NCBI GenBank assembly: GCA_963769935.1
Contig: CAVYNY010000018.1
Span: 64,001-128,000 of the forward strand
Reading direction: 5' to 3'
Source: an uncultured delta proteobacterium
GTDB lineage: Bacteria; Desulfobacterota; Desulfobacteria; Desulfobacterales; JAFDCJ01
DNA: 64,000 bases
Position numbers and translations under genes: made by a program
Shown here: in pieces, positions 1 to 15,112 of the stretch
Layout of the letters: the number at the start of each line of letters is the position of its first letter
Numbering within the stretch: the stretch's first letter is position 1
The notes under the pieces: generated by a model
Database searches by the model: none
What the model was told of the DNA's origin: nothing
The model's input: only the letters and a program-made list of their open reading frames with translations

Positions 1-534
1 CGCTGCGGCAAGCGAGGCCAGATCATGGACTGTCATGTGAGGCCCGCGGATATCTGAAAGGGCGAGCTTCACACCGATCACAGGCTGCATATAGATCAGA
101 TCCCGGGCGACATCGCCTGTAATCGTTGGAGAGGGGTGCCAGTAGGCGCCGGTCAGCATAAAGGCAGTGATGCCTTCGGCATTGAAGCTTTGGGTTTTTG
201 CATAGAGGCTTTCAACCGACCGGGTGAGAGAATCTGTTCCAAGAAGGCCCACCGCAGTTGTCACCCCATGGACTGTATTCATGGTCAGCGTCATCTCCGG
301 GGTCCGGGTGTGGAAGCCTCCCTCACCGCCGCCGCCTGTGAAATGCTGATGACCGTCTATGAAGCCCGGTACGACAGCCATCCCCTTTGCATCGATGACA
401 GCCACTGCGCCAGGCAGCATGCCGGCATCGATATGTTCTTCAATAGCCAGGATCTTCCGGCCGCCAGCGAGCAGGTCTCTTCTGCCCAGGGCCTTTGGCC
501 CGAAGAGCTCTCCGTTTTTTATAAGGATCATCAT
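1..534 (-). CDS. iadA: Isoaspartyl dipeptidase (beta-aspartyl peptidase), 3' end runs off window
   Basis: Hand translation of minus strand (not in ORF track): MMILIKNGELFGP...VVPGFIDGHQHFTGGGGEGGFHTRTPE...GVTTAVGLLGTD...GVKLALSD; IadA-type HxHxxGGGGEGG motif. Confidence 0.9.
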   Translation of the reverse strand, partial: MMILIKNGELFGPKALGRRDLLAGGRKILAIEEHIDAGMLPGAVAVIDAKGMAVVPGFIDGHQHFTGGGGEGGFHTRTPEMTLTMNTVHGVTTAVGLLGTDSLTRSVESLYAKTQSFNAEGITAFMLTGAYWHPSPTITGDVARDLIYMQPVIGVKLALSDIRGPHMTVHDLASLAAA

Positions 535-602
535 GATAAAGATAAGAAATTGCTTTTCCGGAGCGAATGAATCGAAATTCGCGAATTGTGCACCGGCATC
601 AG

Positions 603-874
603 CTTCCGTCTTCGTTCTTCGAACTACGCCGTGACAAGTCCGACTTCGCTCTACGAGCTACGACGGGACAAGGCAGCACAACATATTGAGGCGTCAATTA
701 AACGGAACCAATAGCCAACCGGATAACGGAAGCGGCCTTGATTGTCAATAGTGATTTTTTGAGGCGGGATTGAACTTATAGGCAAATTCGGGCATAGTTC
801 ACCGTAATGACTGCGGCTGGATTTTTTAAAGTTAGGCTTCCGTCTTCGTTCTACGAACTACGCCGCGACAGGTC
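603..874. repeat. REP-like short palindromic repeats, 3 copies (603-640, 641-672, 837-874)
   Basis: CTTCCGTCTTCGTTCT(T/A)CGAACTACGCCG(T/C)GACA(A/G)GTC twice plus variant CGACTTCGCTCTACGAGCTACGACGGGACAAG. Confidence 0.8.
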
Positions 875-1119
875 AATCGGATAATCTGCATCAATTATAT
901 GATCGTCCGCACCGGGCGAGGAGCACTCATCAAAGATGAGGACGGAGTTGGTTAAACCCCCGCAGTCCAAATAGCGCCGGATGACATCACTCCCCCGCAG
1001 GACCGGGGGGGGCGCCAAGTGATTGACATTGCGTAGAAAATATCATAGAAACGTCTCAAAATTGGCCTTAATCGACCGGTTTTCCTCCAAAACTGCCCTG
1101 TTAAGAGACTCGACAGGAA

Positions 1120-1360
1120 ATGGCTCGTGCAACAAGACATTATATACCCGGTTATGTCTGGCATACCCCGGTGAAACAAAGCAAGAAAATCTTTAACGGG
1201 GTAAATAACCCACAGATGCCATAAGCGAGAATTTCTTCTAAAATTCCCAAGAGACCGGCACAGATGGATGGAGTGGCTATACCAGGCAAAGAAAAGGCAT
1301 CATTGATTTTGATCGACTGATGGGCTTGCTGGGTTTTGAAAATTATACAGAAGTGGAGCC
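1120..1360 (+). pseudogene. RAYT/IS200-like HUH transposase remnant, interrupted by a 40-bp hairpin and internally deleted
   Basis: MARATRHYIPGYVWH-[40 bp]-ITHRCHKREFLLKFPRDRHRWMEWLYQAKKR, then jumps to IIDFDRLMGLLGFENY. Confidence 0.8.
1165..1204 (+). repeat. 40-bp hairpin insert, copy 1
   Basis: ACCCCGGTGAAACAAAGCAAGAAAATCTTTAACGGGGTAA between CAT and ATA codons. Confidence 0.85.
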
Positions 1361-1531
1361 AGCAAAGAGGTAACCAGACGGCGTCGGGGCCATTCTTTTT
1401 TCAGCCGTCGTCGCGTTTCCAGAGTCGCTATAAGGGCAAGGTCGAGCCAGTGTGCCAGCATGCGCGGATATAGAATATCGTTAAGTTAACGGCATTAGGC
1501 TCGACCCCAGTCCCACCCCGGCCCCCATATC

Positions 1532-2857
1532 CTAGTCCGACTCCCACAGCTGCCGGTAGGAGAGAGAATCCAGTATCTTGAGGTATTCCTGCTTCCCCAG
1601 CCGGGGTTTGAAATCACTTATGATCTCGCGGGCCGCCTGCGCATCATTTGCCAGCAGATCGATCACGGTGGCGGCAAGTATCTTGGCGGATGTAATGAAG
1701 GCCATCTCCTCATCGGTCGGTTCGAAATCCTTTGAATGCAGGTCTCCGCTAAAAGACCCTACGAAGGGATGTATGCCGGGCATCAAATGGGTGAGATCGC
1801 CCATATCGGTGGATCCGCCCCATGCCTCAACATAATGCACGTTTTCGTCGCCCAAGATGGCTTCGGCATTCTTTCGCCAGCATTTGGTCAAGCGCTCGTC
1901 GCTTAGGATCGGCAGGTATCCCGCCGTATTGGTGATCTCCACTTTGGCCCCTATCCCCATCGCTCCGGCCCGCAGTGCCCGATCCACTTTTGCATTAATC
2001 TCTTTTATCGCTTCAATCGTTTTTGCGCGTACATACATTTCCAGCCGCACCTCACCGGGAACGACGTTGACGGCATCGCCGCCTTTGGTGACGATCATGT
2101 GGACCCGGACGGCATCCTCATCGCGAAATGTTTCCCGCTGGGCATGGATAGCCGCCAAAGCCACATGGAAGGCGTTTAACGCATTGATCCCTTTGAAGGG
2201 TGCCACTCCGGCGTGAGCCGCACGACCCAAAAAACGCACGGCTTTCCCGACAAAACCGTTACTGCCCGAGGAGATAAAGGCGCTCTTCCCCGGGATATCC
2301 GACTGGGCATGCTGCATCACAACTAAATCAACATCATCCAGCGCCCCCAGCCTGACCAGCTCCTGTTTGCCGCCGAAGTACTTGATTTGGCCCTGCTCTT
2401 TCAGCTTCTGGCGAAACTCGAGGTTGACAAACTCTTCCGCCGGCACGGCAAAGAGAACCACCCTTCCGGGCAATTTATCCATTATTTTTTTCAGACCGAA
2501 GCCGGCGCCCACAAGACCCGCCAGCTGCGCGAAATGGCCGCAGGCATGAACCAGACCGCTTTCCTTGTCTGCTTTCGGATGATCCGCATTGAACAACGCA
2601 TCCAATTCGCCCAAAAGAGCGATACAGGGCCCCTCGCCGGTCCCTTCCAGATAGCCTTTTACGCCGGTGACTGCTAAACGGCTCTGGGTCCGGATGCCCC
2701 AATCTTGAAAAAACGTTTCCACTTTCCTGGCGGTTTTGTGTTCGCGGAAACCTTCTTCCGGTTCGTTAAACACTGAGCGGCCCAGCTCGATGATCTGATC
2801 CCTATTGCCTTCAATCTCCTCGAAGGCTTCATCCTTCAGTTTTTGAATGTTCATCAT
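1532..2857 (-). CDS. M20D-family amidohydrolase
   Basis: PEEGFRE, ELDAL, HACGH, PAEE, GSTDMGD motifs. Confidence 0.9.
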   Translation of the reverse strand: MMNIQKLKDEAFEEIEGNRDQIIELGRSVFNEPEEGFREHKTARKVETFFQDWGIRTQSRLAVTGVKGYLEGTGEGPCIALLGELDALFNADHPKADKESGLVHACGHFAQLAGLVGAGFGLKKIMDKLPGRVVLFAVPAEEFVNLEFRQKLKEQGQIKYFGGKQELVRLGALDDVDLVVMQHAQSDIPGKSAFISSGSNGFVGKAVRFLGRAAHAGVAPFKGINALNAFHVALAAIHAQRETFRDEDAVRVHMIVTKGGDAVNVVPGEVRLEMYVRAKTIEAIKEINAKVDRALRAGAMGIGAKVEITNTAGYLPILSDERLTKCWRKNAEAILGDENVHYVEAWGGSTDMGDLTHLMPGIHPFVGSFSGDLHSKDFEPTDEEMAFITSAKILAATVIDLLANDAQAAREIISDFKPRLGKQEYLKILDSLSYRQLWESD

Positions 2858-3057
2858 ATCAGTCCTTGTATTTTCAAAACTATTTCGGCAACTACGGCTG
2901 AACCGAAAAAGGTTCCCAAAAAGACCGCGAAGGCCACAACCACCAATTTCCAGCTCAGCTGCTTCAGTCGATCCACCTGGGTGCCGACAGCGATGCCGGC
3001 AAAGGCCAGAATGGGAGTGGTGGTGCCCAAAAAGTTCACCGAATTGGTATATTCCAA
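2854..3057 (-). pseudogene. 5'-truncated membrane protein (C-terminal part only)
   Basis: Two hydrophobic segments (TTPILAFAGIAVG; VVVAFAVFLGTFFGSAVVAE), coupled to amidohydrolase start, abuts vapC stop with no evident RBS. Confidence 0.55.
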
Positions 3058-3066
3058 TTAACTCAT

Positions 3067-3468
3067 TTATATAGATGTCAGCACTTTTAAACCAAGGTGT
3101 TTTTCTATAGGATTGAAATCTCTATCGTTATGTAAAAGGACCATATCGTTTTCGATTGCAACTGATGCTATCATGCAATCTATGAAATTTCTTATCGAAA
3201 TTCCCTTGCGGCGCAGGGTTCTATAAATTTCCGCTGCGCTCAAAAAAACTGAATATGGCATCGGCAAAAAAACCATGGTATTGAAAAGTTCCTTTGTTTT
3301 TCGAAACTCATTTTTCTCCCGGACACCTTGAAGTACCTCCGTTAAAATAATACCGCAGATACATATATCTTCCCGGTCTTTTATTAAAAGTTCAAGAACT
3401 GTTACATGAGGCAGCTGTCTTCCGGCAAAAAAATCAATCCATACAGTTGTGTCAATCAATACCATCAT
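3067..3468 (-). CDS. vapC: VapC PIN-domain toxin
   Basis: VLIDTTVWIDFF, EVLQG, DCMIA, HNDRDF. Confidence 0.9.
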   Translation of the reverse strand: MMVLIDTTVWIDFFAGRQLPHVTVLELLIKDREDICICGIILTEVLQGVREKNEFRKTKELFNTMVFLPMPYSVFLSAAEIYRTLRRKGISIRNFIDCMIASVAIENDMVLLHNDRDFNPIEKHLGLKVLTSI

Positions 3469-3668
3469 CAGTTGCGACCCCTGCGCCATTCGGCAAGATC
3501 ACCTTCCCAATTAATTCTGCCTTTTAATTCAAGTATCTTAGTCTGAGACTCATGCCTCAATAATTCTCGCAAGGCATGATCAATCAGAGCCCTTTGGGTT
3601 TTTATGCCCGTGGTTTTCATGCATTTATCAACCAGTTTATCATCAAGTACAATGTTTGTCCTTTTCAT
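3468..3668 (-). CDS. vapB: VapB antitoxin
   Basis: MKRTNIVLDDKL...WEGDLAEWR; TGATG overlap with vapC. Confidence 0.85.
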   Translation of the reverse strand: MKRTNIVLDDKLVDKCMKTTGIKTQRALIDHALRELLRHESQTKILELKGRINWEGDLAEWRRGRN

Positions 3669-3848
3669 ATGGCTGCTCCTTTTTCCGTTTATATACACAA
3701 AATAACACAATTAAGGTGTATTATAAAGAAAAAAAATTGGGGATACCGCTGGCGGTCACTTGCGCCAGAGGGATTTCAATTATTACAAAACAGGCAGTTA
3801 GTTCTGTACTTATGATCGTGAATTTTAAGAAAAAATGCAAATCGGGGG

Positions 3849-3937
3849 AGATAACGACCTAAATCAGCGGGCGGGCAACTACCATTGCTAAAACGGCGCC
3901 GCACTTATTCCGCGTCCGCTTGATTTTTTTGTCAGGC
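3849..3937 (-). other. attC site (R'' mutated to GAC)
   Basis: Minus: GCCTGAC-aaaaa-AATCAAGC...GCTGATT-taggtc-GTTATCT with extrahelical base in L''. Confidence 0.75.
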
Positions 3938-3960
3938 GCTTTTGTTTCTTCATTCCATTA

Positions 3961-4398
3961 TTATGAAGCGGTTATCTTGTATTCGGTTGTGACCTCGGTG
4001 TTGTTCTTCACCATTTGCCACACAGGGCTGACTGATTCTTCAGCGAGTTGAATTGCTTTTTGAATGTCCACGTCCCGCGTATCCCTGGAAGTCAAAAGGA
4101 ATTCGAGAAGTATCTTTTCAAACTTGATTGGGGGCTGTTCTCGCCTTATACCCTTTGCATTTACTTTCAGGCCAGATATATTTTTCTCCATCTTTCTCAG
4201 TAAATATACAATTGCCGTACCGCTGCATCCAGCAAGACTCATAAGCAGTAATTCAAGTCCGTTATAGCCCTGACCGTCGCCTATTGGCGGTTTAAAGTCG
4301 AAGGCAATTGGTCGAGTCGGATTGGATTTGGAGATGCCGGTAAATTGAACTTTATCATTCGTCAGATTAACTGTAACTTGCTCGAATTGCTCTGCCAT
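3961..4398 (-). CDS. OsmC-family protein
   Basis: GYNGLELLLMSLAGCSG; second Cys position reads SVSPV. Confidence 0.85.
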   Translation of the reverse strand: MAEQFEQVTVNLTNDKVQFTGISKSNPTRPIAFDFKPPIGDGQGYNGLELLLMSLAGCSGTAIVYLLRKMEKNISGLKVNAKGIRREQPPIKFEKILLEFLLTSRDTRDVDIQKAIQLAEESVSPVWQMVKNNTEVTTEYKITAS

Positions 4399-4454
4399 AC
4401 TAGCCTCCTTGAATCTGATAATCTTCGTTTTCCTTCATTATATCAGTACGTTTT

Positions 4455-4545
4455 CCGGTCAGGGCAGGGGCCTTCCAGCCCCATTGCCCCCTGAGAACCC
4501 TGCGTGATAGTTTTCCCTCACAGAGCTCAAGCATTTCAAAGGACA
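4455..4545 (-). mobile_element. Group II intron 3' remnant (domains V and VI)
   Basis: Minus: GAGCTCTGTGAGGGAAAACTATCACGCAGGGTTC, a 34-nt DV with AGC triad (4495-4528), then DVI-like hairpin ending CTGACCGG. Confidence 0.8.
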
Positions 4546-4639
4546 CACTTATGGGGCGGCGCGACTGTTCACATCATTCCCATGTTATACGCGCTTTATC
4601 AAATGGAGCATTTTAAACTGGATAGCAGCGATGGTCCCC

Positions 4640-4906
4640 AAAATTTGAGCAGTATGATATCTGTTCAAGAGCCTGCGCATTACCGTGGCGATAGGGGCAA
4701 CACCTATCCTCAATAATAAGTGAAGGCGTGATTATTATAAACGTCCACGCAAAGCAGGGGGTTTTGCTGTCGGATAAGATACCGCCGAGTCGATCCCAAA
4801 AATCACCACGGTCGGGATTATCGAAAAAAAACTTTCTTCGATTAATCCCCCTCACAATTATATGGTGCAGCGCTCCGGGGGCTTCTATGCTGGCTTTTCG
4901 AGGCAT
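4640..4906 (-). pseudogene. RAYT/IS200-like HUH transposase N-terminal remnant (second subtype)
   Basis: MPRKASIEAPGALHHIIVRGINRR...CFAW then frameshifted NH..HLLLRIGVAPIATVMRRLL. Confidence 0.85.
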
Positions 4907-4973
4907 GTCAACCAGGTATCAAATAAATCCGAATATGGAAACCGTAAATCCGAGGAACGTCGCCGATACCCCG

Positions 4974-5042
4974 CACTCAATTCTGATTCCATAAATTTTA
5001 TCCTTTGAAGTAAAACCACTAAACCCCGAAGAGAACAGGGTG
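4974..5042 (-). repeat. Duplicate of ybaK leader and first codons (other copy 10504-10570)
   Basis: ATTCTGATTCCATAAATTTTATCCTTTGA..ACCACTAAACCCCGAAGAGA.CAGGGTG at both places; both start MESELS. Confidence 0.85.
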
Positions 5043-5335
5043 TCAAATCCTGTTCATTGATTAAAATGGCCTCATTAATTACAGATCAAGACGCGTCCCT
5101 CCATCCCGGATTTATATCGCCTTCATTTCCAATTCGCCAGGCGCCGAACATACGCCCACTTTGTTAACGTGCATCTTACGACCATATCAGGCCTTAATCA
5201 CTAATCAAGACCCATTTTCCCATACATACACAAAAAGGTTAAGGTAGTGCCAAAGACTTTTTGGAGACTCATAGTATCCTGAAATTATTAAATTTTTAGA
5301 AAACGACTGTTAAAGATCAGTTTAAGATTGACACT

Positions 5336-5370
5336 ATGACCAAATGTAATTACAGTGGGTACATATAATC
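5336..5370 (+). promoter_or_regulatory. Probable mazEF operator/promoter region
   Basis: TTGACA at 5328-5333 and palindromic TGTAATTACA followed by GTACAT upstream of mazE. Confidence 0.5.
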
Positions 5371-5395
5371 ATAATATAAACTAGGAGCTAATCCC

Positions 5396-5668
5396 ATGGA
5401 AGATCACGCAAGAGTGAGAGATGCAAAGCTGGTCCCAATTGGAAATTCAAAGGGTGTTCGTATACCCAAAGCGCTCCTCCAAAAATATGGCCTAAAAAAT
5501 TCCCTTCTAATTGAAGAAACAGGCAGAGGCCTGCTTCTTCGGAATAAAGAAGAAAGCAAGCTTTCTTGGGAGGAAACATACAAAGCTATGGCAAATGAAA
5601 AGGAACATTGGGACGATTTTGACACAACGCTTCTTGATGGCTTGGAGGATGAAAACTTTGAATATTAA
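5396..5668 (+). CDS. mazE: AbrB/MazE-family antitoxin
   Basis: KLVPIGNSKGVRIPKALL AbrB motif; AGGAG RBS. Confidence 0.85.
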   Translation: MEDHARVRDAKLVPIGNSKGVRIPKALLQKYGLKNSLLIEETGRGLLLRNKEESKLSWEETYKAMANEKEHWDDFDTTLLDGLEDENFEY

Positions 5669-5984
5669 AAGGTACGAGATATATTCCGCAGATCTCAACC
5701 CCACGATAGGAAGCGAAATAAAAAAGGTGCGCCCCCTAGTCATAATTAGCCAAGACGAAATGAATAAATATTTGGAAACAGTTGTTGTATGTCCTTTAAC
5801 CTCAAAATTGCATCCCCAATGGAGGACCAGAATCCAGATTAAATGCGCGAAAAAAAATGCTGAAATCGCTGTTGACCAGATTCGTACCATTAGCAAACAG
5901 AGATTAAAACATAAAATTGATCAGTTATCCACTAGCAAAGCCGCCCAACTTCGAAAACTCATAACTGATATGTACGGTGAATAA
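5658..5984 (+). CDS. mazF: MazF/PemK-family toxin
   Basis: KRYEIYSADLNPTIGSEIKKVRPLVIIS...VCPLTS...DQIRTISKQRL; TTG start after GGAGG. Confidence 0.9.
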   Translation: MNIKRYEIYSADLNPTIGSEIKKVRPLVIISQDEMNKYLETVVVCPLTSKLHPQWRTRIQIKCAKKNAEIAVDQIRTISKQRLKHKIDQLSTSKAAQLRKLITDMYGE

Positions 5985-6038
5985 ATGCTTTCTCCAAATC
6001 ATCTATTCCAATATTTGCTCTTTTGCTTCAGCATCATC

Positions 6039-6072
6039 GCACAACGCCCGGCGTGAGCAGTGCCGCCAATAT
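6039..6072 (-). other. attC right half (L'/R' only)
   Basis: Minus GCACTGCTCACG-ccgggc-GTTGTGC resembles right arm of 14344-14446; left arm absent. Confidence 0.55.
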
Positions 6073-6249
6073 CGAAAAAACTGAACATCGCGTCCTCGAC
6101 GGCAAGCGAATCCGTGGCGAGGGGTCGGCAAATCGTCGAGAGGCAAGGGTAGAAGCTTGTGGACGAAAATATTGAATAATCCGAAAATCCGAGGAACGTC
6201 CCGGTATACGTTAACTTAAGCCTTCTGCCCCTTATTTGATTGCTTTTTG

Positions 6250-6277
6250 CGTCATCCCGGCGAAGGCCGGAATCCAG
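6250..6277. repeat. REP-like palindrome
   Basis: CGTCATCCCGGCGAAGGCCGGAATCCAG, hairpin CCGGC-GAAG-GCCGG. Confidence 0.6.
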
Positions 6278-6402
6278 TCTTTTCAATCTTTCCCAGTCCC
6301 AGAGCTAAGCGAGAGATGATGTCGGCTAAAAAGTTTTATTCACTCATCACGACACGGCCCCATATTTACATGAAGGTTTCGAACCCTTTCTACTTGAATT
6401 CA

Positions 6403-7929
6403 TTAAGGTGCTGCCGGGCCTCCACCTCCTTGGGCGTTGCGCTGTGCAAGGAAAGCTGAAACTGTTTGTCTTCTACCACCAGGTCTGGCTATCACAAAGA
6501 CAGTACCACCCGCAACTCTTCGGCCAAATCTAAATTCGTGAAAAATTCTATATCCTTCTGCTTGACTCGTGAATTGAAATAACGTTCTACTTCCCACATT
6601 ATATTGACCCGTAAACCTGATGGTAGGATCATTAAAAAGATTCTGAAGGAGGGTAGCCTCTGCGTTTAATCCAGCGCGGTGAGCTCTATTGAAAATGGCA
6701 TCGGATATTACCGTTCCAATCCTCCTGGCATAGTTTCGAGTTTGGAAACGCTCTTCCAGAATATGCACAAAATTCAGTTGGAGACTAAGGTCATCGCAGG
6801 CAAGCAAATCTTCAATATCGACGTAACCCATATCAAAGTCATCGACGTCGACAGGTTCTAATGGTGTTCCTGGAGGATTTCCGGGCCTCGTTGATAGGCC
6901 TTGACTTGTTATCAGTCGCATTGGTACTGTTACGCCTCTATCTATGAATGCCCGCATTTGTCTGTCAAAATGGGTGAGGCTTGCCTCATCGTGCAGATCG
7001 TATGCCAAATTCTGTCCATCTAAGCGATAGGTTATTGGTCTAGGCTGAGGCGGTAAGTTATTTAGCCGATCAATCAGTTCCTGCACTCTGCCAAAACCTG
7101 AAGCTTCACCCGGGCCAGGCGGGCGCAATTCAACCCTGCGTTGAATATTTGGAGTACTTTGTTCCCCTCCATTCTGCTGTATAAAATGCGTCAACTCGTG
7201 AGCCAGTAAGCGTTTGCCATCGTTCGATTGAGTATCGTATCGTCCTGCACGAAAGTATATATTTCTCCCTTGCGTAAATGCTCTGGCATTCAGTGCTCGA
7301 CTTTTTTTGTCTGCCGAACTATCCGTATGAACCCTGACCTTCGTGAGGTCATAACCCATGCGCGGCTCGAAAAAATCGCGCGTAGTCGAGTTTAGTGGAT
7401 GCCCTGGGGAGGAAATTGCCTTCTCTGCAGAGCTGGCAGGCTTGCCGATATCATTTCCTTGCGCAGGCTTGGTCTGTATTTGTGTTTGTACGTCTTGTCG
7501 ATTCTGGCTTTTCGGGCGCCCTCCGCCACATGGGCATGCGCGTTGCAAATTAGGTTCGGACATGTGCATCACTTGGTCTGCAACACGGTCTGCTTGCAGC
7601 TCATACATATCTCCTGACGTACTGACCGTAAGTTTTGGTTGCGTCTTCCTTTGTGGTGGGGCGGGATGAATAGGTATCTGGCTAAAGTCATGAACAAACC
7701 GAGCTGCAGCTGTGGCGCTGGATTCAACTTCATGGCTTTGGGAGTCAGCTCGCAGCAAGCTCTGCACTGCTTGACTGCCGGTGATGCGCTGCATTTGTAA
7801 GATAGCGCGCACGTCACGATGGTGTTTAGCAAGAGTCGTGCTGGCTTTTGTTGATTTTGACATTAAGGTCTGATGAATTGCCTTTGATCTTTGTGCGAAA
7901 GTGCGCATGCTTATTATCCTTTCGTTCAA
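6403..7929 (-). CDS. DUF4157 (eCIS-core domain) protein with uncharacterised C-terminal domain; start uncertain
   Basis: VRVHTDSSA...ARAFTQGRNIYF...LLAHELTHFIQQ; upstream QPKLTVSTSGDMYELQADRVADQVM. Confidence 0.85.
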   Translation of the reverse strand: MNERIISMRTFAQRSKAIHQTLMSKSTKASTTLAKHHRDVRAILQMQRITGSQAVQSLLRADSQSHEVESSATAAARFVHDFSQIPIHPAPPQRKTQPKLTVSTSGDMYELQADRVADQVMHMSEPNLQRACPCGGGRPKSQNRQDVQTQIQTKPAQGNDIGKPASSAEKAISSPGHPLNSTTRDFFEPRMGYDLTKVRVHTDSSADKKSRALNARAFTQGRNIYFRAGRYDTQSNDGKRLLAHELTHFIQQNGGEQSTPNIQRRVELRPPGPGEASGFGRVQELIDRLNNLPPQPRPITYRLDGQNLAYDLHDEASLTHFDRQMRAFIDRGVTVPMRLITSQGLSTRPGNPPGTPLEPVDVDDFDMGYVDIEDLLACDDLSLQLNFVHILEERFQTRNYARRIGTVISDAIFNRAHRAGLNAEATLLQNLFNDPTIRFTGQYNVGSRTLFQFTSQAEGYRIFHEFRFGRRVAGGTVFVIARPGGRRQTVSAFLAQRNAQGGGGPAAP

Positions 7930-8186
7930 TGCGCATCAGCTGCAGGCCGCATTTGTGCATGAATCTATCGCCATCTAAGGGCTCACTCAAAAATAACTTC
8001 ACATTTTATACGCCGATGCATTTCTTACGGCTGCGTTGCGAAAGCTCGGAATATCCAGATATTCCTGCGTTTTCGCGCCTTGCCGGAAGAGCGCCTCAAC
8101 ACCTAAAACTGTGAATTAATTTTTTCTTAAACCCTAAGGGTTTGCCCCGCACTTCCATTTCGTCAGCTGCATGCGACTTGTTGAGG
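7923..8186 (-). other. attC site interrupted by MITE, R' degenerate
   Basis: Minus CCTCAAC-aagtc-GCATGCAGCTGAC pairs with GCAGCTGATGCG at 7931-7943. Confidence 0.65.
7979..8134. mobile_element. 156-bp MITE with imperfect TIRs and TAA target duplication
   Basis: GGGCTCACTCAAAAATAACTTCACATTTTA versus reverse complement GGGTTTAAGAAAAAATTAATTCACAGTTTTA; TAA on both sides. Confidence 0.75.
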
Positions 8187-8466
8187 ACCCGGCAAGCGCG
8201 ATAATTTCCTGCGGAACGCTTCGCTAAAAATCGCTGCAACCTGACGAGTGAGCAGAAGGCCACCTCCCGATGGCAAATTTTGCTATGAGACCATTAGCCA
8301 TAGGTTAAACATTAACTTTATGGTTTAAAGAGGTGCCCAACGAAAATATACGCTGGAATTGATCTGCATTCAAATAATAATTTTATGGGCGTCCCCATTA
8401 TCCACGCGTGGTCAGTCCCAAGGATTGACCCCAATCTCCCCTGCTGACGCCCCGCCTGGTGCTTTT

Positions 8467-8736
8467 TTACCTTTGCCTTTTTACCATTGCGAGAGCTTCT
8501 TCATAGGCGTGCAACCTTTCCTCCCATTCATGCAGTTGCCGGTGGTCATTGCGCCAGCGCTCCATTTCACGTTTTCCGTCCGGTGATAGCCCTCCGCCTG
8601 AAACACTCAAGAACTGCTCCGTGGTCATCCCATATTGGTGCTCTCTTTTCAGCAAATCTGCCTTCAGACGCTTGATGACGCTACGGCAGATATTGGTCTC
8701 CCTGCCCATGGAGATCTCGTATTCGTCGTAATACAT
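8467..8736 (-). CDS. Small hypothetical protein
   Basis: 89 aa ORF with AGGAG RBS, helical composition. Confidence 0.65.
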   Translation of the reverse strand: MYYDEYEISMGRETNICRSVIKRLKADLLKREHQYGMTTEQFLSVSGGGLSPDGKREMERWRNDHRQLHEWEERLHAYEEALAMVKRQR

Positions 8737-8847
8737 GAAAACTCCTTCTGATGCGGATTGGGGGTTAAACCTTGAATTGTGAATTTCAAATCCAAGAGGT
8801 TAAGGACATTGGCCAAATTCACAATTCAAGGTATGACCTCAGTCTTA

Positions 8848-9043
8848 CAGTATGCTCAAGCCAAAACGCTTCTTTCCTTCAAAAAGCCACCAGAGTCGCC
8901 GGCGCCGATCTCTGCCAAACATCAAAAGGAATTCCTTCTTATGGCAACGGTGAGTTATTTACCCCGTTAAACCTTTTCTTACTTTGTTTAACTGGGGTGT
9001 GCCAGACATACCCCGGTACGTAATGCCTGCTTGTCCTTGGTAT
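8848..9043 (-). pseudogene. RAYT remnant with 40-bp hairpin insert
   Basis: (ATA)PRTSRHYVPGYVWH-[40 bp]-ITHRCHKKEFLLMFGRDRRRRLWWLFEGKKRFGLSIL*. Confidence 0.85.
8959..8998 (-). repeat. 40-bp hairpin insert, copy 2
   Basis: Minus ACCCCAGTTAAACAAAGTAAGAAAAGGTTTAACGGGGTAA. Confidence 0.9.
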
Positions 9044-9190
9044 GGAGCATATCCATAGAAGCCGATTTTCATGGTCAAAATCATCATTCTAAGGTCGATC
9101 GACAACAGCCGCCACTTTACACCTCTTATATCATGATCACAGGTACTTCCGGCGGTCAGACCCGCCCCGGGTGGAAAATTCGTCCGCTCT

Positions 9191-9550
9191 CTACAGAAAA
9201 TAGGGTTTGATGAAAAAGAGCATTGTTGAGAAAATAAAAATGCAGGCATTTAGAATCGCGCACAGAGCGGCCTCCCGCAGGAAAGGCCGGAGCTTCCCAT
9301 TATTGGGATTCCGGTTTATGCCCTTGAAGGCTTTTCGAAGGCACATGAGGTAATTGGCAAAAAGGCAGGTGCCAATAATCAATAAAGTCTTGACCAATAA
9401 ACTACCTCCCAGCTCATTGCCCGGAATAATAAGGATTTTACCTAAAGCAAGACCGAAAAAGACATTGGCCAGGATCGTTAAAATCGGAAATTTGTTGGAC
9501 GACAGGGTTCGTTTAAGGGAGTGAATAATTTCTTGCATGCCATGCCCCAT
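9191..9550 (-). CDS. Hypothetical membrane protein
   Basis: Three hydrophobic segments. Confidence 0.55.
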   Translation of the reverse strand: MGHGMQEIIHSLKRTLSSNKFPILTILANVFFGLALGKILIIPGNELGGSLLVKTLLIIGTCLFANYLMCLRKAFKGINRNPNNGKLRPFLREAALCAILNACIFIFSTMLFFIKPYFL

Positions 9551-9984
9551 AAATATCAGAATTTGGAAACCGAACCAAAGCTAAAACGGTATATAAGTCC
9601 ATTGGAATATTCAAAATCTGAACCGTAAGGCACCTCTAAAAAAATATTAAAAATCCGAAGCCTTTGGATTTGTTTCTCAACAACGCCTCAAAGCCTCAAC
9701 AAGTATTGCTGTAGTCCCTTTTCGGCTGATAAGCAAAAGCTTATTTTATGTCGATATACAGTTTTGGCGACCGCTCATTTCCCCTGTTTTTTTAATGACC
9801 ATCTTGGCGCCGATTCCGAAAGTAAAAAGAATAAAGGAGTATATCAAAGCTTGAATAGTGTATAAAGCAGTTGAAATTTTGTTTCTTATTCACAATTCAA
9901 GCTTTGCCCCCCTTTTTTCACATCTGCTATTTCAGCGGAGCATTTTTCGCATTTCATGATAATTAATACTTTCAGAGGTGTAGC

Positions 9985-10039
9985 CTTGGCAAAAGGTGCG
10001 GAGGCATTTTGCCGTCGCCCTTAATGCCGTTGTTTTATA
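9985..10039 (-). other. Degenerate attC (R' lost)
   Basis: Minus ATAAAAC-aacgg-CATTAAGGGCGACGG...CCGCACCTTTTGCC, no GTT follows. Confidence 0.5.
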
Positions 10040-10521
10040 TCTTCCGATAAATAGATCCATTTTCCTTTGGTAAGAGGCTCCAGATCGGAAGGTTTTAGCT
10101 GAAAAACGGCAAAAGGAGTGCCTGCCGCTGCCCATATCGTTTCATATTTTTTCAAATCCCTATCCAACAAGGTTTCCAAAGGTTCAATATGCCCTACAGG
10201 CGGAACACCACCGATTGCATATCCGACTCTAGCCTTTACAAAATTTCCATCCGCTTTTCCAATATTTAAACCTAACGACTTTTGGATTTTTTTCACATCA
10301 ACTCGATTTGAGCCGGATGCAATGACAAGAATAGGTCTGTCCGTTTTCTCCTCCCTGAAAACAAGCGATTTAGCAATCTGGGCCACCGTACATCCTATGC
10401 TGTCAGCAGCCTCCTGAGCGGTCCTCGCTGAACCAGGCAGTTCCTTGACATCAAATGAGAATCCCATTTCAGAAAGGAAATCCTGTACACGCTTCGCACT
10501 ATTGCTTAATTCTGATTCCAT
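10021..10521 (-). CDS. YbaK/EbsC-family aminoacyl-tRNA deacylase
   Basis: TAQEAA..IAKSLVF, GYAIGGVPPVGH, WAAAGTP. Confidence 0.9.
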   Translation of the reverse strand: MESELSNSAKRVQDFLSEMGFSFDVKELPGSARTAQEAADSIGCTVAQIAKSLVFREEKTDRPILVIASGSNRVDVKKIQKSLGLNIGKADGNFVKARVGYAIGGVPPVGHIEPLETLLDRDLKKYETIWAAAGTPFAVFQLKPSDLEPLTKGKWIYLSEDIKQRH

Positions 10522-10569
10522 AAATTTTATCCTTTGAGTATAACCACTAAACCCCGAAGAGAGCAGGGT

Positions 10570-10671
10570 GCATATTCCACAGTGAGCAGCGGCCCAATTT
10601 CAGACTGAACCTGCACGGCCTTTACGTTAAGCCGCGATTTTCACGCCGTCTGCTCCACCGGCATGTTTCAT
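10570..10671 (-). other. attC site, R' degenerate; homolog of attC 14344-14446
   Basis: Shared GAGCAGACGGCGTGAA.ATCGCG..CGTAAAGGCCGTGCA..GGGCCGCTGCTCAC. Confidence 0.7.
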
Positions 10672-11153
10672 GCGTCGCCTTTCTTCCAATACTCGCCCAT
10701 CAGCTCGCTGGACCAGGCGGGTTGGTCGACAGGACTTCTGGGAAGGAACTCCGACATGACAGGTTTCAGATCTACGACCGGTGTGCCATCGATGGCGTCC
10801 AATTCTTCCACCTGTATCTCCCGACCATTTACCGAAATAATCCGACAAATTGTACTGCCGAGTCGATTCGGGCGATTCTTGCCCCTTTGTGCGAATATCC
10901 CAACCTTTGGCCAATCGACGTTGTTCCTCGGGCGGCGCGCGCCAGAGACGATCTTCGAAGGCTCGACTTGATCGAAGACGAACAGAACCTCGACGTGGGA
11001 AAATTCCTGCAACCCTTGCAGCGCCTCGGCGTCGAAGCTATCGACAAGCCGAATCAAGGACCGGGTCTTGCCCCAGTAATCGTCCTTCGCCTCCTTGCGA
11101 GAGGTTCGAACGTATCCAATTGGCTCTATCTCAAAAGCCACCGCATACTCCAT
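10668..11153 (-). CDS. TrmO/TsaA (YaeB)-like SAM-binding beta-barrel protein
   Basis: IEPIGYV, GLQEFSHV, GIFAQR..NRPNRLG, LDAIDGTPVVDLKP. Confidence 0.85.
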   Translation of the reverse strand: MEYAVAFEIEPIGYVRTSRKEAKDDYWGKTRSLIRLVDSFDAEALQGLQEFSHVEVLFVFDQVEPSKIVSGARRPRNNVDWPKVGIFAQRGKNRPNRLGSTICRIISVNGREIQVEELDAIDGTPVVDLKPVMSEFLPRSPVDQPAWSSELMGEYWKKGDA

Positions 11154-11168
11154 GCTTTTCTTAGGAAT

Positions 11169-11253
11169 TTACCCTGTTAAACCTTTTCTTACTTTGTTTA
11201 ACTGGGGTATGCCATATCTGACCCAGTATGTTATGCCTTTTCGCTCTTGCCAT
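11169..11253 (-). pseudogene. RAYT 5' remnant ending at 40-bp hairpin (copy 3, 11169-11208)
   Basis: MARAKRHNILGQIWH-ACCCCAGTTAAACAAAGTAAGAAAAGGTTTAACAGGGTAA then unrelated sequence. Confidence 0.85.
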
Positions 11254-11420
11254 TGCTATATCGCTGTTTTTTGCTCCAAAAAGCTCAATATACCCCTGCT
11301 TTTGGGGGTACAAGTAAGCTCATTCTCTATAATTATAGCCTGTTAGCCTGGCCCGTCCCCAAATCTGGAAATGAGCAGGGCCGTAAGTGAATCGATATCA
11401 AGCGAGAGACGTGTCCCAGC

Positions 11421-12335
11421 TCAAAGGCCGGCAACGAATTGTCTAATCGTCTGTTTGACTGATCCGAGGTCTCCCCGATCCTCAATCGAGCCGTAGATGT
11501 CGCCACCAAGGTCTGCAGGCATCCTCGCACCCTTCTCACGAATCACAAGCACCTGATCTTTCCCCTTGGCTGCCGCGAAGTACCCCGCCTCGAACACAAC
11601 GTTGTCGCGAGGAGCAGCTTCGCGGCCGGGCCCTGGCAGGCCAAGGTCGTCGTCCTTGGTAAAGAGAAAGATCCCGAGCGAGGTGCGAGATCTGGCCTCA
11701 TCGATCTCCTCTAGAATCGTCCTTCCTGGCCTGAAGTCGCGCTGCCAATCCAGTACTGTCGCCCCCACCTCTGACTCGAGGAAGCTTCGAAGTTCGCCGG
11801 CGGTCGCCGATGCCTGACTGCAGTATCCAAAAAAGACATCCTTGCGGGCCCTCAATTGGTTCCCCCAGTGAGTCTTGAACACAACCTCAAACTGAGGAGT
11901 GTCGAGCCATGACTTGTCCGCATCATCGGGAAAGACGCCCACATAAGGACCAAAGGACATGTCAAACACCACCCTTCGCATAAGACGCTGTTGTGCCAGT
12001 ACCAAGAGAGGCAAGCCCAGGGTGCGTGCTAAGGCACCCTCATAATAACAATATTCAGTCGGTAAGAAGACCGGTCCGTCTGAGGCATGCAGCTCCCACC
12101 GAGGAAGCCCGATGATGGCCGCACCTTGACAATGTTGAGCGACTTCATGGGCAGCGGAAGCACTCCAAGCCTGTGGAGCAGACATCGAGTTACGACCAGT
12201 TGGATCGGTGAAGATCTCTGGTATGTATCCGAGCTGCTCGATGCGCTCAACCACACCCCACTTCAGATCATTTTCGTTATCGGTTAGCCAGGGATCGGCA
12301 GGCATACTGACGTAGATTCTTCGATTGACACCCAT
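11421..12335 (-). CDS. Two-domain protein: N-terminal NDT/DUF4062-like fold plus C-terminal CAP12/Pycsar-type TIR domain
   Basis: IYVSMP...TEYCYYEGALARTLGLPLLVL; VFFGY...GIFLFTKDD...PRDNVVFEAGYF...MPADLGG. Confidence 0.8.
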   Translation of the reverse strand: MGVNRRIYVSMPADPWLTDNENDLKWGVVERIEQLGYIPEIFTDPTGRNSMSAPQAWSASAAHEVAQHCQGAAIIGLPRWELHASDGPVFLPTEYCYYEGALARTLGLPLLVLAQQRLMRRVVFDMSFGPYVGVFPDDADKSWLDTPQFEVVFKTHWGNQLRARKDVFFGYCSQASATAGELRSFLESEVGATVLDWQRDFRPGRTILEEIDEARSRTSLGIFLFTKDDDLGLPGPGREAAPRDNVVFEAGYFAAAKGKDQVLVIREKGARMPADLGGDIYGSIEDRGDLGSVKQTIRQFVAGL

Positions 12336-12399
12336 TTCTACCTCCGTCGTCGTGATTTAGCGGGGCGCGGGTAAGCAGCACACTTTCGCGAGGAATAAG

Positions 12400-12570
12400 G
12401 GGCCGGATCGATTTTGTAATAGTGCGCTACTTTGTCAATGAGCGCCGGCAGTCTGACAGCAGTCACCTGCAGGCGATATCTTTCCTTCAACTGTTCATCG
12501 GCTTGCTTTAACACCCGTTGCATAAATTCTGACGAACCCAGCATCTATTCTGGCTTATGCGAGGCATAAC
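12400..12570 (-). pseudogene. RAYT C-terminal remnant
   Basis: LGSSEFMQRVLKQADEQLKERYRLQ...LIDKVAHYYKID resembles C-terminal extension of long RAYTs. Confidence 0.6.
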
Positions 12571-12631
12571 GCCTATTTATCAGATCTCTATAATAATGCA
12601 AATATAGAAATAGAACGGATGTTCCCATTAT

Positions 12632-12736
12632 CCCCCCAAGTGGGACTTTCACCTTCGGCGATCACCCACTGGGCAACATTATCAAATTTCACCTCCTTGG
12701 GAGGTTCCCAACGATTCGGGCTATGCTGGGCACGAC
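12632..12736 (-). mobile_element. Probable group II intron 5' remnant (domain I start)
   Basis: Minus GTCGTGCCCAGCATAGCCCGAATC...GGGTGATCGCCGAAGGTGAAAGTCCCAC; preceded by GCCGAAC-cacgc-AGTG (attC R'' and start of L''). Confidence 0.6.
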
Positions 12737-12753
12737 CACTGCGTGGTTCGGCC

Positions 12754-13356
12754 CTATCGTTCAGCAATTATACAGTCATCAATGTGCGAACCAAGATTGT
12801 CAGATAACCGCTGGGTAATCTTTCGCATAGATGCTTCCGGTCGATCGAAACCATAAACCGTTAATGGAAAATTTAGCGGCTCCTGAATTTTCCATATCTC
12901 ATCGTGCTTATTAGGCGAAAATAACTTGGCTGGATTACCAACGGCAATCCAGCCTATCGGCACTACAACTCCGGGTTCGAGGTACGATTTTAAATGAACA
13001 ACGGCATTTATTCGAACCTGAGATCCTTTGCCCAAACGTGCGCTATGAAAAATTGCGGCTCCGGTTGCAATGAAGACTTCGTCTTCGACAGCGCATCCAA
13101 CCACATGTGCATTAGGACCGATTAGGCAATAATTTCCGATGGACGCTGAATGATCGGGATTGCTCCTTACAACCGCGTTTTCGAAAATAATGCATTGTTC
13201 ACCAATAACTATTTTGCCGCCCTCTGCAATAATCGAAGCTCCATGCATTATCCTGCAATTCGGACCGATGGTAACATCACCACAAAGTGTTGCGGTAGGT
13301 GCAACATAGGCTGATGGATGAACTTGCGGTTGTTTACCGTTATGTGAAAGAAACAC
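12754..13356 (-). CDS. Gamma-carbonic anhydrase-like left-handed beta-helix protein
   Basis: PQVHPSAYVAPTATLCGDVTIG hexapeptide repeats, GNPAK; GGAGG RBS, GTG start. Confidence 0.85.
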   Translation of the reverse strand: MFLSHNGKQPQVHPSAYVAPTATLCGDVTIGPNCRIMHGASIIAEGGKIVIGEQCIIFENAVVRSNPDHSASIGNYCLIGPNAHVVGCAVEDEVFIATGAAIFHSARLGKGSQVRINAVVHLKSYLEPGVVVPIGWIAVGNPAKLFSPNKHDEIWKIQEPLNFPLTVYGFDRPEASMRKITQRLSDNLGSHIDDCIIAER

Positions 13357-14462: not shown

Positions 14463-14699
14463 CTACAGTTTGTCATGCTTTTCAGGTTCAACATCAGGAA
14501 CTTTATCCAGTACAGCTTGATACTTTTTCCGTGATGCCCTCCTGGCTCTTTTGTTCAGATATTCCTCAGTCAGCAATGCCGTCATTTTTTCCGCAGTCGC
14601 TGAAGCAATGAACTGGTTTATAGAAATTCCCTCCCGTTGCGCCAGTTGTCGAATTTGTTCATGTAAAGAATTCGGTATTCGTAGGCTTAATGTACTCAT
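14463..14699 (-). CDS. RHH (HicB-like) antitoxin
   Basis: MSTLSLRIPNSLHEQIRQLAQREGISINQFI. Confidence 0.85.
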   Translation of the reverse strand: MSTLSLRIPNSLHEQIRQLAQREGISINQFIASATAEKMTALLTEEYLNKRARRASRKKYQAVLDKVPDVEPEKHDKL

Positions 14700-15112
14700 T
14701 TTATAACTCCTATCTCTGAAAGAAATTCTCTTGGATCGAGAACCCTTAGGCCGAATCGTTCAATACCTTTAAAATCACGCTTATTGTAGGTGACAATTGC
14801 ATCGCATCCCGCTGCAACAGCAACCTCCAGCACATGATCATCAGACGGATCCGGCAAAAAAGGGCGCCAGAGAAAAAATATTTCTTGATGATGGCCAATT
14901 TTACATAGAAAATCTACGAAATTTCCTATGTCCTGTGATGTGATAGCAGAGGATTCCAGTCGCTTTAACGCATCCTCATACTCCAAAACCAAAGGGACTG
15001 AAATGGCGATCGAAAACTCATCGCTTGGTAGAACCGATACGAGCTTAAAGGATGCACCACGGCGGGATCTTAACGCTGAAACTAAAACATTCGTATCAAT
15101 CACAATTTTCAT
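14696..15112 (-). CDS. PIN-family toxin
   Basis: IVIDTNVLVSAL, EYE, DPSDDHVLEVA, VTYNKRDF. Confidence 0.9.
   Translation of the reverse strand: MKIVIDTNVLVSALRSRRGASFKLVSVLPSDEFSIAISVPLVLEYEDALKRLESSAITSQDIGNFVDFLCKIGHHQEIFFLWRPFLPDPSDDHVLEVAVAAGCDAIVTYNKRDFKGIERFGLRVLDPREFLSEIGVIK

Follow-up and report, generated by a model that had tools for sequence, protein, structure and literature searches.

The window analysed here is a 64,000-nucleotide (nt) stretch of contig CAVYNY010000018.1, from an uncultured delta proteobacterium. Near its start it carries three decayed copies of a Y1/HUH transposase gene of the kind called TIRtron or TIRYT, in which a Y1 gene lies between terminal inverted repeats (TIRs), and each copy is interrupted by a 40-nt hairpin with a short tag at its foot (Table 1). 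The three inserts stand directly after the Trp-His (W-H) codons and in the orientation of the gene, as the original prediction described; its literal pattern, with a single N between the arms, finds no match, the actual loop being about 13 nt.

Table 1. Coordinates of the transposase remnants and inserts in the window, and of other palindromes elsewhere
Feature	Position	Strand	Remarks
TIRYT (Y1/HUH transposase) remnant 1	1013..1346	+	upstream region, ATG at 1120, about 47 codons, then internal deletion
Tagged hairpin insert, copy 1	1166..1205	+	CCCC...GGGG plus TAAA tag, at CATA^TAACC; frameshift
TIRYT remnant 2	8854..9081	-	decayed start codon at 9043; cut short after about 50 codons
Tagged hairpin insert, copy 2	8958..8997	-	at CACA^TAACT; frameshift
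TIRYT remnant 3	11166..11363	-	left terminal repeat, leader, first 15 codons, hairpin plus 2 nt; remainder deleted
Tagged hairpin insert, copy 3	11168..11207	-	differs from copy 2 at one base
Left terminal inverted repeat of TIRtron	11343..11360	-	begins GGGGAC; inverted partner in intact C35 copy
102-107 nt elements	G000 C1:36739, C9:280591, C10:287712, C11:605797, C13:241519, C17:175478, C19:91671, C20:504567
Second palindrome, 9 nt downstream of insert	L163, L171, L184, L203, L225, L229, L242, L260, L269
Hairpins after the catalytic tyrosine	G000 C12:46949-47112 (L364), C12:53485-53648 (L363); L221; L362:117-230

An intact relative of the host gene, on contig C35, encodes 268 residues with the Pfam domain Y1_Tnp (PF01797). 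It scores 79.1 bits against the NCBIfam model REP_Tyr_transpos (NF047646; cut-off 80), reads NM rather than NP after the tyrosine and has no C-terminal helix-turn-helix by Pfam. Its flanks are terminal inverted repeats beginning GGGGAC, GGGGACGG and GGGGTCGG, which agree with seven of the eight positions of the consensus GGGGWSAS. Given such flanks, the host is not a REP-flanked RAYT (a tyrosine transposase associated with repetitive extragenic palindromic, or REP, sequences), for which it had originally been taken, but a TIR-flanked Y1 gene. Terminal repeats of the host elements begin GGGG[AT]C. The TIRtron/TIRYT arrangement was described by Di Nocera 2013 (PMC3733652), and Quentin 2018 (10.1101/279083) tied TIRYTs to subclass 2.1, whose genes reportedly lack REP-like neighbours. 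Decayed TIRYT copies are many per genome; other intact Y1 proteins of this genome are encoded on C9, C15, C22 and C27. In this genome 11 gene copies still span the site of interest, five of them filled, that is, carrying an insert, and six empty; among the congeners, 10 filled alleles in 8 of 22 genomes stand against 15 strict empty matches.

The inserted unit runs from CCCC to GGGGTAAA and is joined, with no target duplication, into CAYN^TNAC directly after the TGG CAY (W-H) codons. In shape it is REP-like: the stem contains a single bulged base, and 4 nt at its foot form a tag. Removal of the insert restores the intact site exactly, and the joint is ambiguous by at most 1 nt. The site had been placed correctly from the outset, while the register moves by one base, because the empty allele L064 reads TTA and the filled allele L182 keeps T on the left; two alleles have C left of the junction. 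Against the shifted boundary, L254 fits the other register and five alleles read ATG, perhaps through later mutations. Inserts at the TIRYT bond measure 36-56 nt, mainly 36 nt (53) and 40 nt (52) among the matches listed. Fold z-scores are -2.9 to -4.7 for the hairpins of copies 2 and 3 and weaker, -1.8 to -2.8, for copy 1. Four of 11 stem pairs change on both sides among 18 hand-picked copies, and 0 of 500 shuffles equal the alignment for cells paired. With a broad hairpin pattern there were 87 strand-hits in the genome, as against none in 2 Mb of Markov-simulated sequence, and Rfam gave no match in window positions 1-13,000. Since the insert of copy 2 is also found in short-read contigs of run X1 and in a 96%-identical contig of RNA run X6, it is no assembly error.

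The near identity of inserts 2 and 3 despite diverged flanks, a central observation of the original prediction, holds: they differ at one base, copy 1 differs from them at five and six bases, and the 45-nt left flanks of the three share only 64-69% identity. The nearest, or tied nearest, relative of each copy is an empty allele, and copies 2 and 3 have different ones. By blastn, remnant 1 is 72-82% identical to the intact relatives L074 and L102; its left flank is 93% identical to the empty allele C20:223843 and equally so to the filled copy on C31, and its deletion spans about nt 133-459 of the coding sequence (CDS). Remnant 2 matches the empty allele C10:482798 (L103) at 78-82% overall and at 82% over the left flank. 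Remnant 3 matches the intact TIRtron of C35 (L117) at 91% over 156 nt, its left flank being 91-93% identical to an empty copy. Copies 1 and 2 are frameshifted and also shortened further downstream; in copy 3 a TrmO-family gene joins right after 'TT', the sole remnant of the transposase gene 3' of the hairpin.

Filled alleles were gathered from this genome, the genus, GTDB (15) and metagenomes (at least 121 stretches), and comprise at least 119 distinct alleles with at least 74 different inserts at the TIRYT bond. The 15 from GTDB come from records titled as Desulfobacterales-type, Deltaproteobacteria, Thermodesulfobacteriota or Pseudomonadota metagenome-assembled genomes. A gap-pattern scan of GTDB had apparently yielded 89 filled alleles in several phyla; 72 of its 87 distinct matches hold no hairpin insert and were discarded (70 empty alleles whose start codon region fits the pattern, one tandem duplication and one other).

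Inserts and flanks are incongruent throughout this collection. At least 15 alleles share an identical 39-mer with flank identities of 61-93%, and different inserts can occur in flanks that are nearly identical (93-96%). A tree was built from 64 alleles, 12 filled and 52 empty, after seven of 71 rows (five filled and two empty, with long branches or internal deletions) had been dropped before the approximately unbiased (AU) test. The filled/empty state changes 10 times on it, seven changes being forced by starred branches, and 10 times on the 71-row tree as well; this is no fewer than with random labels (91 of 500 shuffles are as low). A single filled clade is rejected (p-AU 3.1e-6), as it is for the five 40-41-nt alleles alone (p-AU 9.1e-5). 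The filled alleles are polyphyletic and keep their own bases at both junctions. Repeated arrival of the insert at one bond, in many lineages, is supported and one origin is rejected, which bears out both the site-specific repeated arrival proposed at first and the judgement that a single ancient insertion fits poorly. Inheritance of one ancestral insertion by all filled copies would accord with the common bond, the common arms and the clonality of part of one lineage; the AU test, the identical insert in flanks of down to 61% identity and the kinship of the window copies to empty alleles leave it extremely improbable, unless precise loss has produced empty alleles again and again.

A few founder insertions might instead have been copied between TIRtron copies by short-patch gene conversion or annealing of single-stranded DNA (ssDNA), with no fresh targeting. 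Clonal spread does occur: six filled alleles share one deletion (nt 162-429), and because some filled, internally deleted copies probably spread passively, insertion events would be fewer than alleles. At the third position of the split codon, A stands in 70 of 119 filled and 12 of 91 empty alleles among the matches listed, which would also suit copying; in close pairs, however, the excess of ATA follows lineage. The best argument for copying between alleles, and the main unexplained point, is the link between loop and site. In this genome the loop subtype of the window occurs only at the TIRYT site (4/4, with at most two substitutions), which a freely mixing pool of hairpins would not predict, and the 40-nt loop subtype is absent from all 400 other genomes of the class that were sampled, one of them a congener, so that it looks genus-specific. 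On the other side, copying would need crossovers within 0-7 nt of the left junction and 1 nt of the right one (L182, L245); L245 equals the empty C35 allele over all 54 nt shown. In 23 close filled/empty pairs the mismatch rate is 0.092 beside the junction against 0.089 at a distance; divergence is no lower around the junction than elsewhere, and the insert therefore carries no flank along. At least four loop classes occupy the same TIRYT bond, and a second palindrome family and a second conserved site, described below, are also involved. We regard copying as unlikely. Homing in the endonuclease sense, one way to read the original wording, is not supported: no flank is co-converted and the 40-nt unit encodes nothing. 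Nor is the unit a miniature inverted-repeat element of a DDE transposase, for which a target-site duplication would be expected; the joined flanks equal intact sites.

The hairpin belongs to a larger family. A relaxed search of the genome returned 67 rows which, less three doubtful and six composite ones, leave 58 non-redundant sites, four in TIRYT genes (the search pattern missed the fifth TIRYT copy) and 54 elsewhere, in intergenic repeat arrays or inside other family members. In the genome search suggested by the original prediction, the 40-nt loop subtype is confined to the TIRYT site and the family lies mostly at other sites; the hairpin is not specific to this gene. Tags at the 58 sites are TAAA, CAGG, CAAG and variants (TTTA, CCTG and CTTG on the opposite strand). 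Joined flanks match intact sites elsewhere in the genome, often at 85-100% among the matches listed, be it in repeats (cacgaaa, catagct, gatcgtt, gttgat) or in other hairpins, and hairpins nested in hairpins occur. A pyrimidine lies directly 3' of the unit at 52 of the 58 sites, which are not independent. The family is present in 21 of the 23 genomes of the genus and on viral contigs (21 stretches, L311-L331), again in short repeat arrays. In one genome and 14 viral loci it was never seen as the flank of a Y1 gene, any matches associated with such genes lying only inside them; that the transposase is the hairpin's own, as had been proposed, is not supported. No long parent element with hairpin arms around a gene was found in this genome. 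Eight elements of 102-107 nt share these arms, are tagged at both ends and differ widely in their spacer; all lie in one host repeat and resemble REPINs.

All 119 listed inserts disrupt the gene, 57 being of in-frame length with an internal stop and 62 causing a frameshift, although the terminal TAA is part of the search patterns and in-frame variants that do not stop could be missed. Inactivation, as first claimed, is therefore general in this collection. Some filled alleles are otherwise intact, with ratios of nonsynonymous to synonymous substitution (dN/dS) of 0.06-0.12; four (L164, L176, L232, L236) have 235-266 open codons once the insert is removed and low dN/dS. Alleles such as L164 mean that the insert can be the first lesion. 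The dN/dS of filled and empty alleles compares at p=0.06 (6 against 11 pairs). These alleles, and the exact restoration of the frame on removal, would suit the suggestion that the insert is an excisable off-switch. At least 235 codons are open after removal in only 3 of 55 judgeable filled alleles, as against 33 of 75 empty ones, among the matches listed and from partly different collections; the other 52 are broken elsewhere, and all three window copies are truncated. Neither an excised form nor a contig joined across the insert appears among the contigs of runs X1, X2, X3 and X6, in which rare forms drop out. A switch is very improbable.

Why this bond should be chosen is suggested by its surroundings. 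At the empty site the W-H...C-H codons form a weak stem-loop whose loop has 11 nt, and the insertion point lies one base inside that loop; windows over this site fold best of 237 along 42 intact genes. A second, unrelated palindrome family, of 32 nt, is inserted at the far side of the same loop in 9 of the 119 listed filled alleles, in several lineages (Table 1). We infer that the loop is an unusually good acceptor. The second palindrome was found alone at its site in none of the 23 genomes of the genus; relatives of it are nested in other repeats of this genome, and in L163 both inserts together measure 72 nt, which puts a short stretch back in frame. A third palindrome, ending CAGG, is apparently inserted a few codons before the W-H codons in L032 and L034, and the otherwise empty allele L348 (G008:C25) carries 5 extra nt within the target loop, perhaps as a scar.

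An unselected scan along 240 alleles revealed only two further positions, at CDS nt ~373 (one allele) and ~603 (three alleles, opposite strand). The hairpins at nt ~603, in L190, L231 and L269, have three different loops. The site at nt ~373 is L^N just after the catalytic tyrosine, and two other Y1 subfamilies are also struck there (two related copies on C12, and G124), so that same-arm hairpins with longer loops, ~50-150 nt, stand at Y-I-[DH]-L^N in three Y1 subfamilies. A genome search for this hairpin found it in 2 of 121 genomes; the one match of a further search was a chance match in an unrelated gene. This genome has 64 Y1 segments, in which the family is confined to the two conserved motifs (five and two copies).

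We think it reasonably probable, from the sequences, that the hairpin has been inserted repeatedly by single-strand cutting and rejoining, without target duplication, through a putative enzyme probably of HUH/Y1 type, and that the gene has thereby been broken in many lineages. Such a reaction is preferred because the tag, the bulged hairpin and the absence of a duplication match the substrates and products of HUH/Y1 enzymes, whose chemistry joins DNA without duplication and in which tags guide REP cleavage (PMC8266576). The tagged hairpin would move as ssDNA and be joined at preferred bonds, mostly before a pyrimidine, the W-H...C-H stem-loop offering its loop as a preferred acceptor; some filled, internally deleted copies would then spread passively with the TIR element, so that events would be fewer than alleles, with at least 7-10 changes on the 64-allele tree.

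Several observations, besides the link between loop and site, weigh against repeated cutting and rejoining. The published REP guide-to-cut rule, as set out in PMC8266576, fails to predict the junctions, no fixed target tetramer was found and no leading/lagging-strand bias is detectable (25 against 21, with weak skew). Neither a Y1 gene nor another obvious mobiliser is present among 83 open reading frames beside 40 genomic stretches and 28 beside viral ones, which are ordinary genes with the sole exception of one HNH gene in a phage. Filled alleles were collected with site-specific patterns, and their count is not a rate; change counts cannot separate gain from loss. The target stem-loop is weak (-3.3 to -3.6 kcal/mol), codon-dictated and equal in filled and empty alleles (p=0.52), and other targets of the hairpin show no excess of structure over random DNA. 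A general rule of insertion by target secondary structure is accordingly not supported.

A special case of repeated cutting and rejoining would have the TIRYT protein itself bind the tagged hairpin and join it into its own gene, in cis or in ssDNA copies of the element, the hairpin being a minimal parasite that disables its helper. The high occupancy in this genome and the congeners, the restriction of the family to two conserved motifs among the Y1 segments and the filled alleles that are otherwise intact would be in keeping with this, and for subclass 2.4 there are known cases of REPs lying within their own tnpA-REP genes (10.1101/279083). TIRYT elements, however, end in terminal inverted repeats of another kind, the hairpin is never seen beside a Y1 gene as a cognate REP would be, subclass 2.1 is the one reportedly without REP-like neighbours in the same source, and most hairpins lie at sites outside Y1 genes. 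Self-insertion of this kind is quite unlikely; the TIRYT gene is a frequent victim and only a candidate as mobiliser. It is likewise a tentative and rather doubtful proposition that a tagged hairpin of ~40 nt is aimed at conserved Y1 motifs (codon 16 and the position following the catalytic tyrosine), perhaps through the Y1 enzymes themselves, and acts as a recurrent knockout by which autonomous TIR elements become passive across sulfate-reducer lineages.

Transposase-less derivatives of IS200/IS605 elements go by the name PATE. Ends of IS200/IS605 and of these derivatives share with our unit a tetranucleotide, a bulged hairpin and the lack of target duplication (guide rule in PMC8266576), whereas here there is one hairpin, with no pair of left and right ends and no fixed target tetranucleotide. 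The REPs and REPINs that accompany RAYTs (TnpA-REP) are likewise imperfect palindromes of 20-50 nt with a tetranucleotide (GTAG/CGTC) at the foot of a bulged stem, in dozens of mostly intergenic copies (PMC3733652, PMC8266576, PMC3116915). The tag here is TTTA, CCTG or CTTG and not GTAG (GT[AG]G) or CGTC, and no REPtron was found. Unlike a REPIN, the unit is a single hairpin and no inverted doublet, and it appears to be the mobile unit, inserting cleanly, nesting in itself and recurring at fixed bonds; REP singlets have been argued to be remnants (PMC3116915). Palindromic repeats inside a Y1 transposase gene are shared with TnpA-Y1 subclass 2.4 (RAYT group 4), where they are in frame and between the HuH motif and the Y motif (10.1101/279083), whereas our hairpins stand at codon 16 or just after the catalytic tyrosine, the codon-16 alleles are always stopped or frameshifted and the host is TIR-flanked. 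The host arrangement is that of PMC3733652, in whose accessible text hairpin insertion in TIRYTs is not described. In the literature covered, which excludes most subscription papers, we found neither this hairpin family described nor a report of a TIRYT/Y1 gene being inactivated repeatedly by insertion at one bond; the supplements of 10.1101/279083 and PMC3733652 may list such repeats.

The remnants lie among varied genes. A remnant of another Y1 transposase subfamily, without insert, occupies window positions 4613-4906 (-). Close to the remnants is a CAP12/Pycsar TIR-domain gene (PF10137; 11421-12335, -), and the region also holds an eCIS-core-domain gene (PF13699; 6403-7929, -), the TrmO-family gene (PF01980; 10668-11153, -) and, by eye, toxin-antitoxin-like two-gene pairs (PIN-like, MazEF-like) at 3067-3710, 5396-5984 and 14463-15112. 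An ~85-nt repeat at ~10580-10670 has several copies in most congeners; we take it to resemble an integron attC-type site, in which case the region may be a cassette array.

These hairpins, in a sediment bacterium, are a variant of REP-like elements that is not described in the literature covered. By what route REP-like repeats reach new sites is still an open question (PMC8266576), and the locus offers a natural pair of donor and target. The unit is 40 nt long, the bond is exact, filled and empty alleles each number more than 100, and the same genome encodes an intact candidate enzyme. With so precise a pair and a candidate enzyme, the reaction is directly testable by oligonucleotide assay. 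If the targeting of transposase genes is true, it would represent a parasite-of-a-parasite or a self-limiting mechanism and a very compact, site-preferring insertion reaction, and a hairpin of ~40 nt aimed at Y1 genes would be among the smallest mobile DNAs. If it is not, these would still be single tagged hairpins that insert precisely at preferred bonds.

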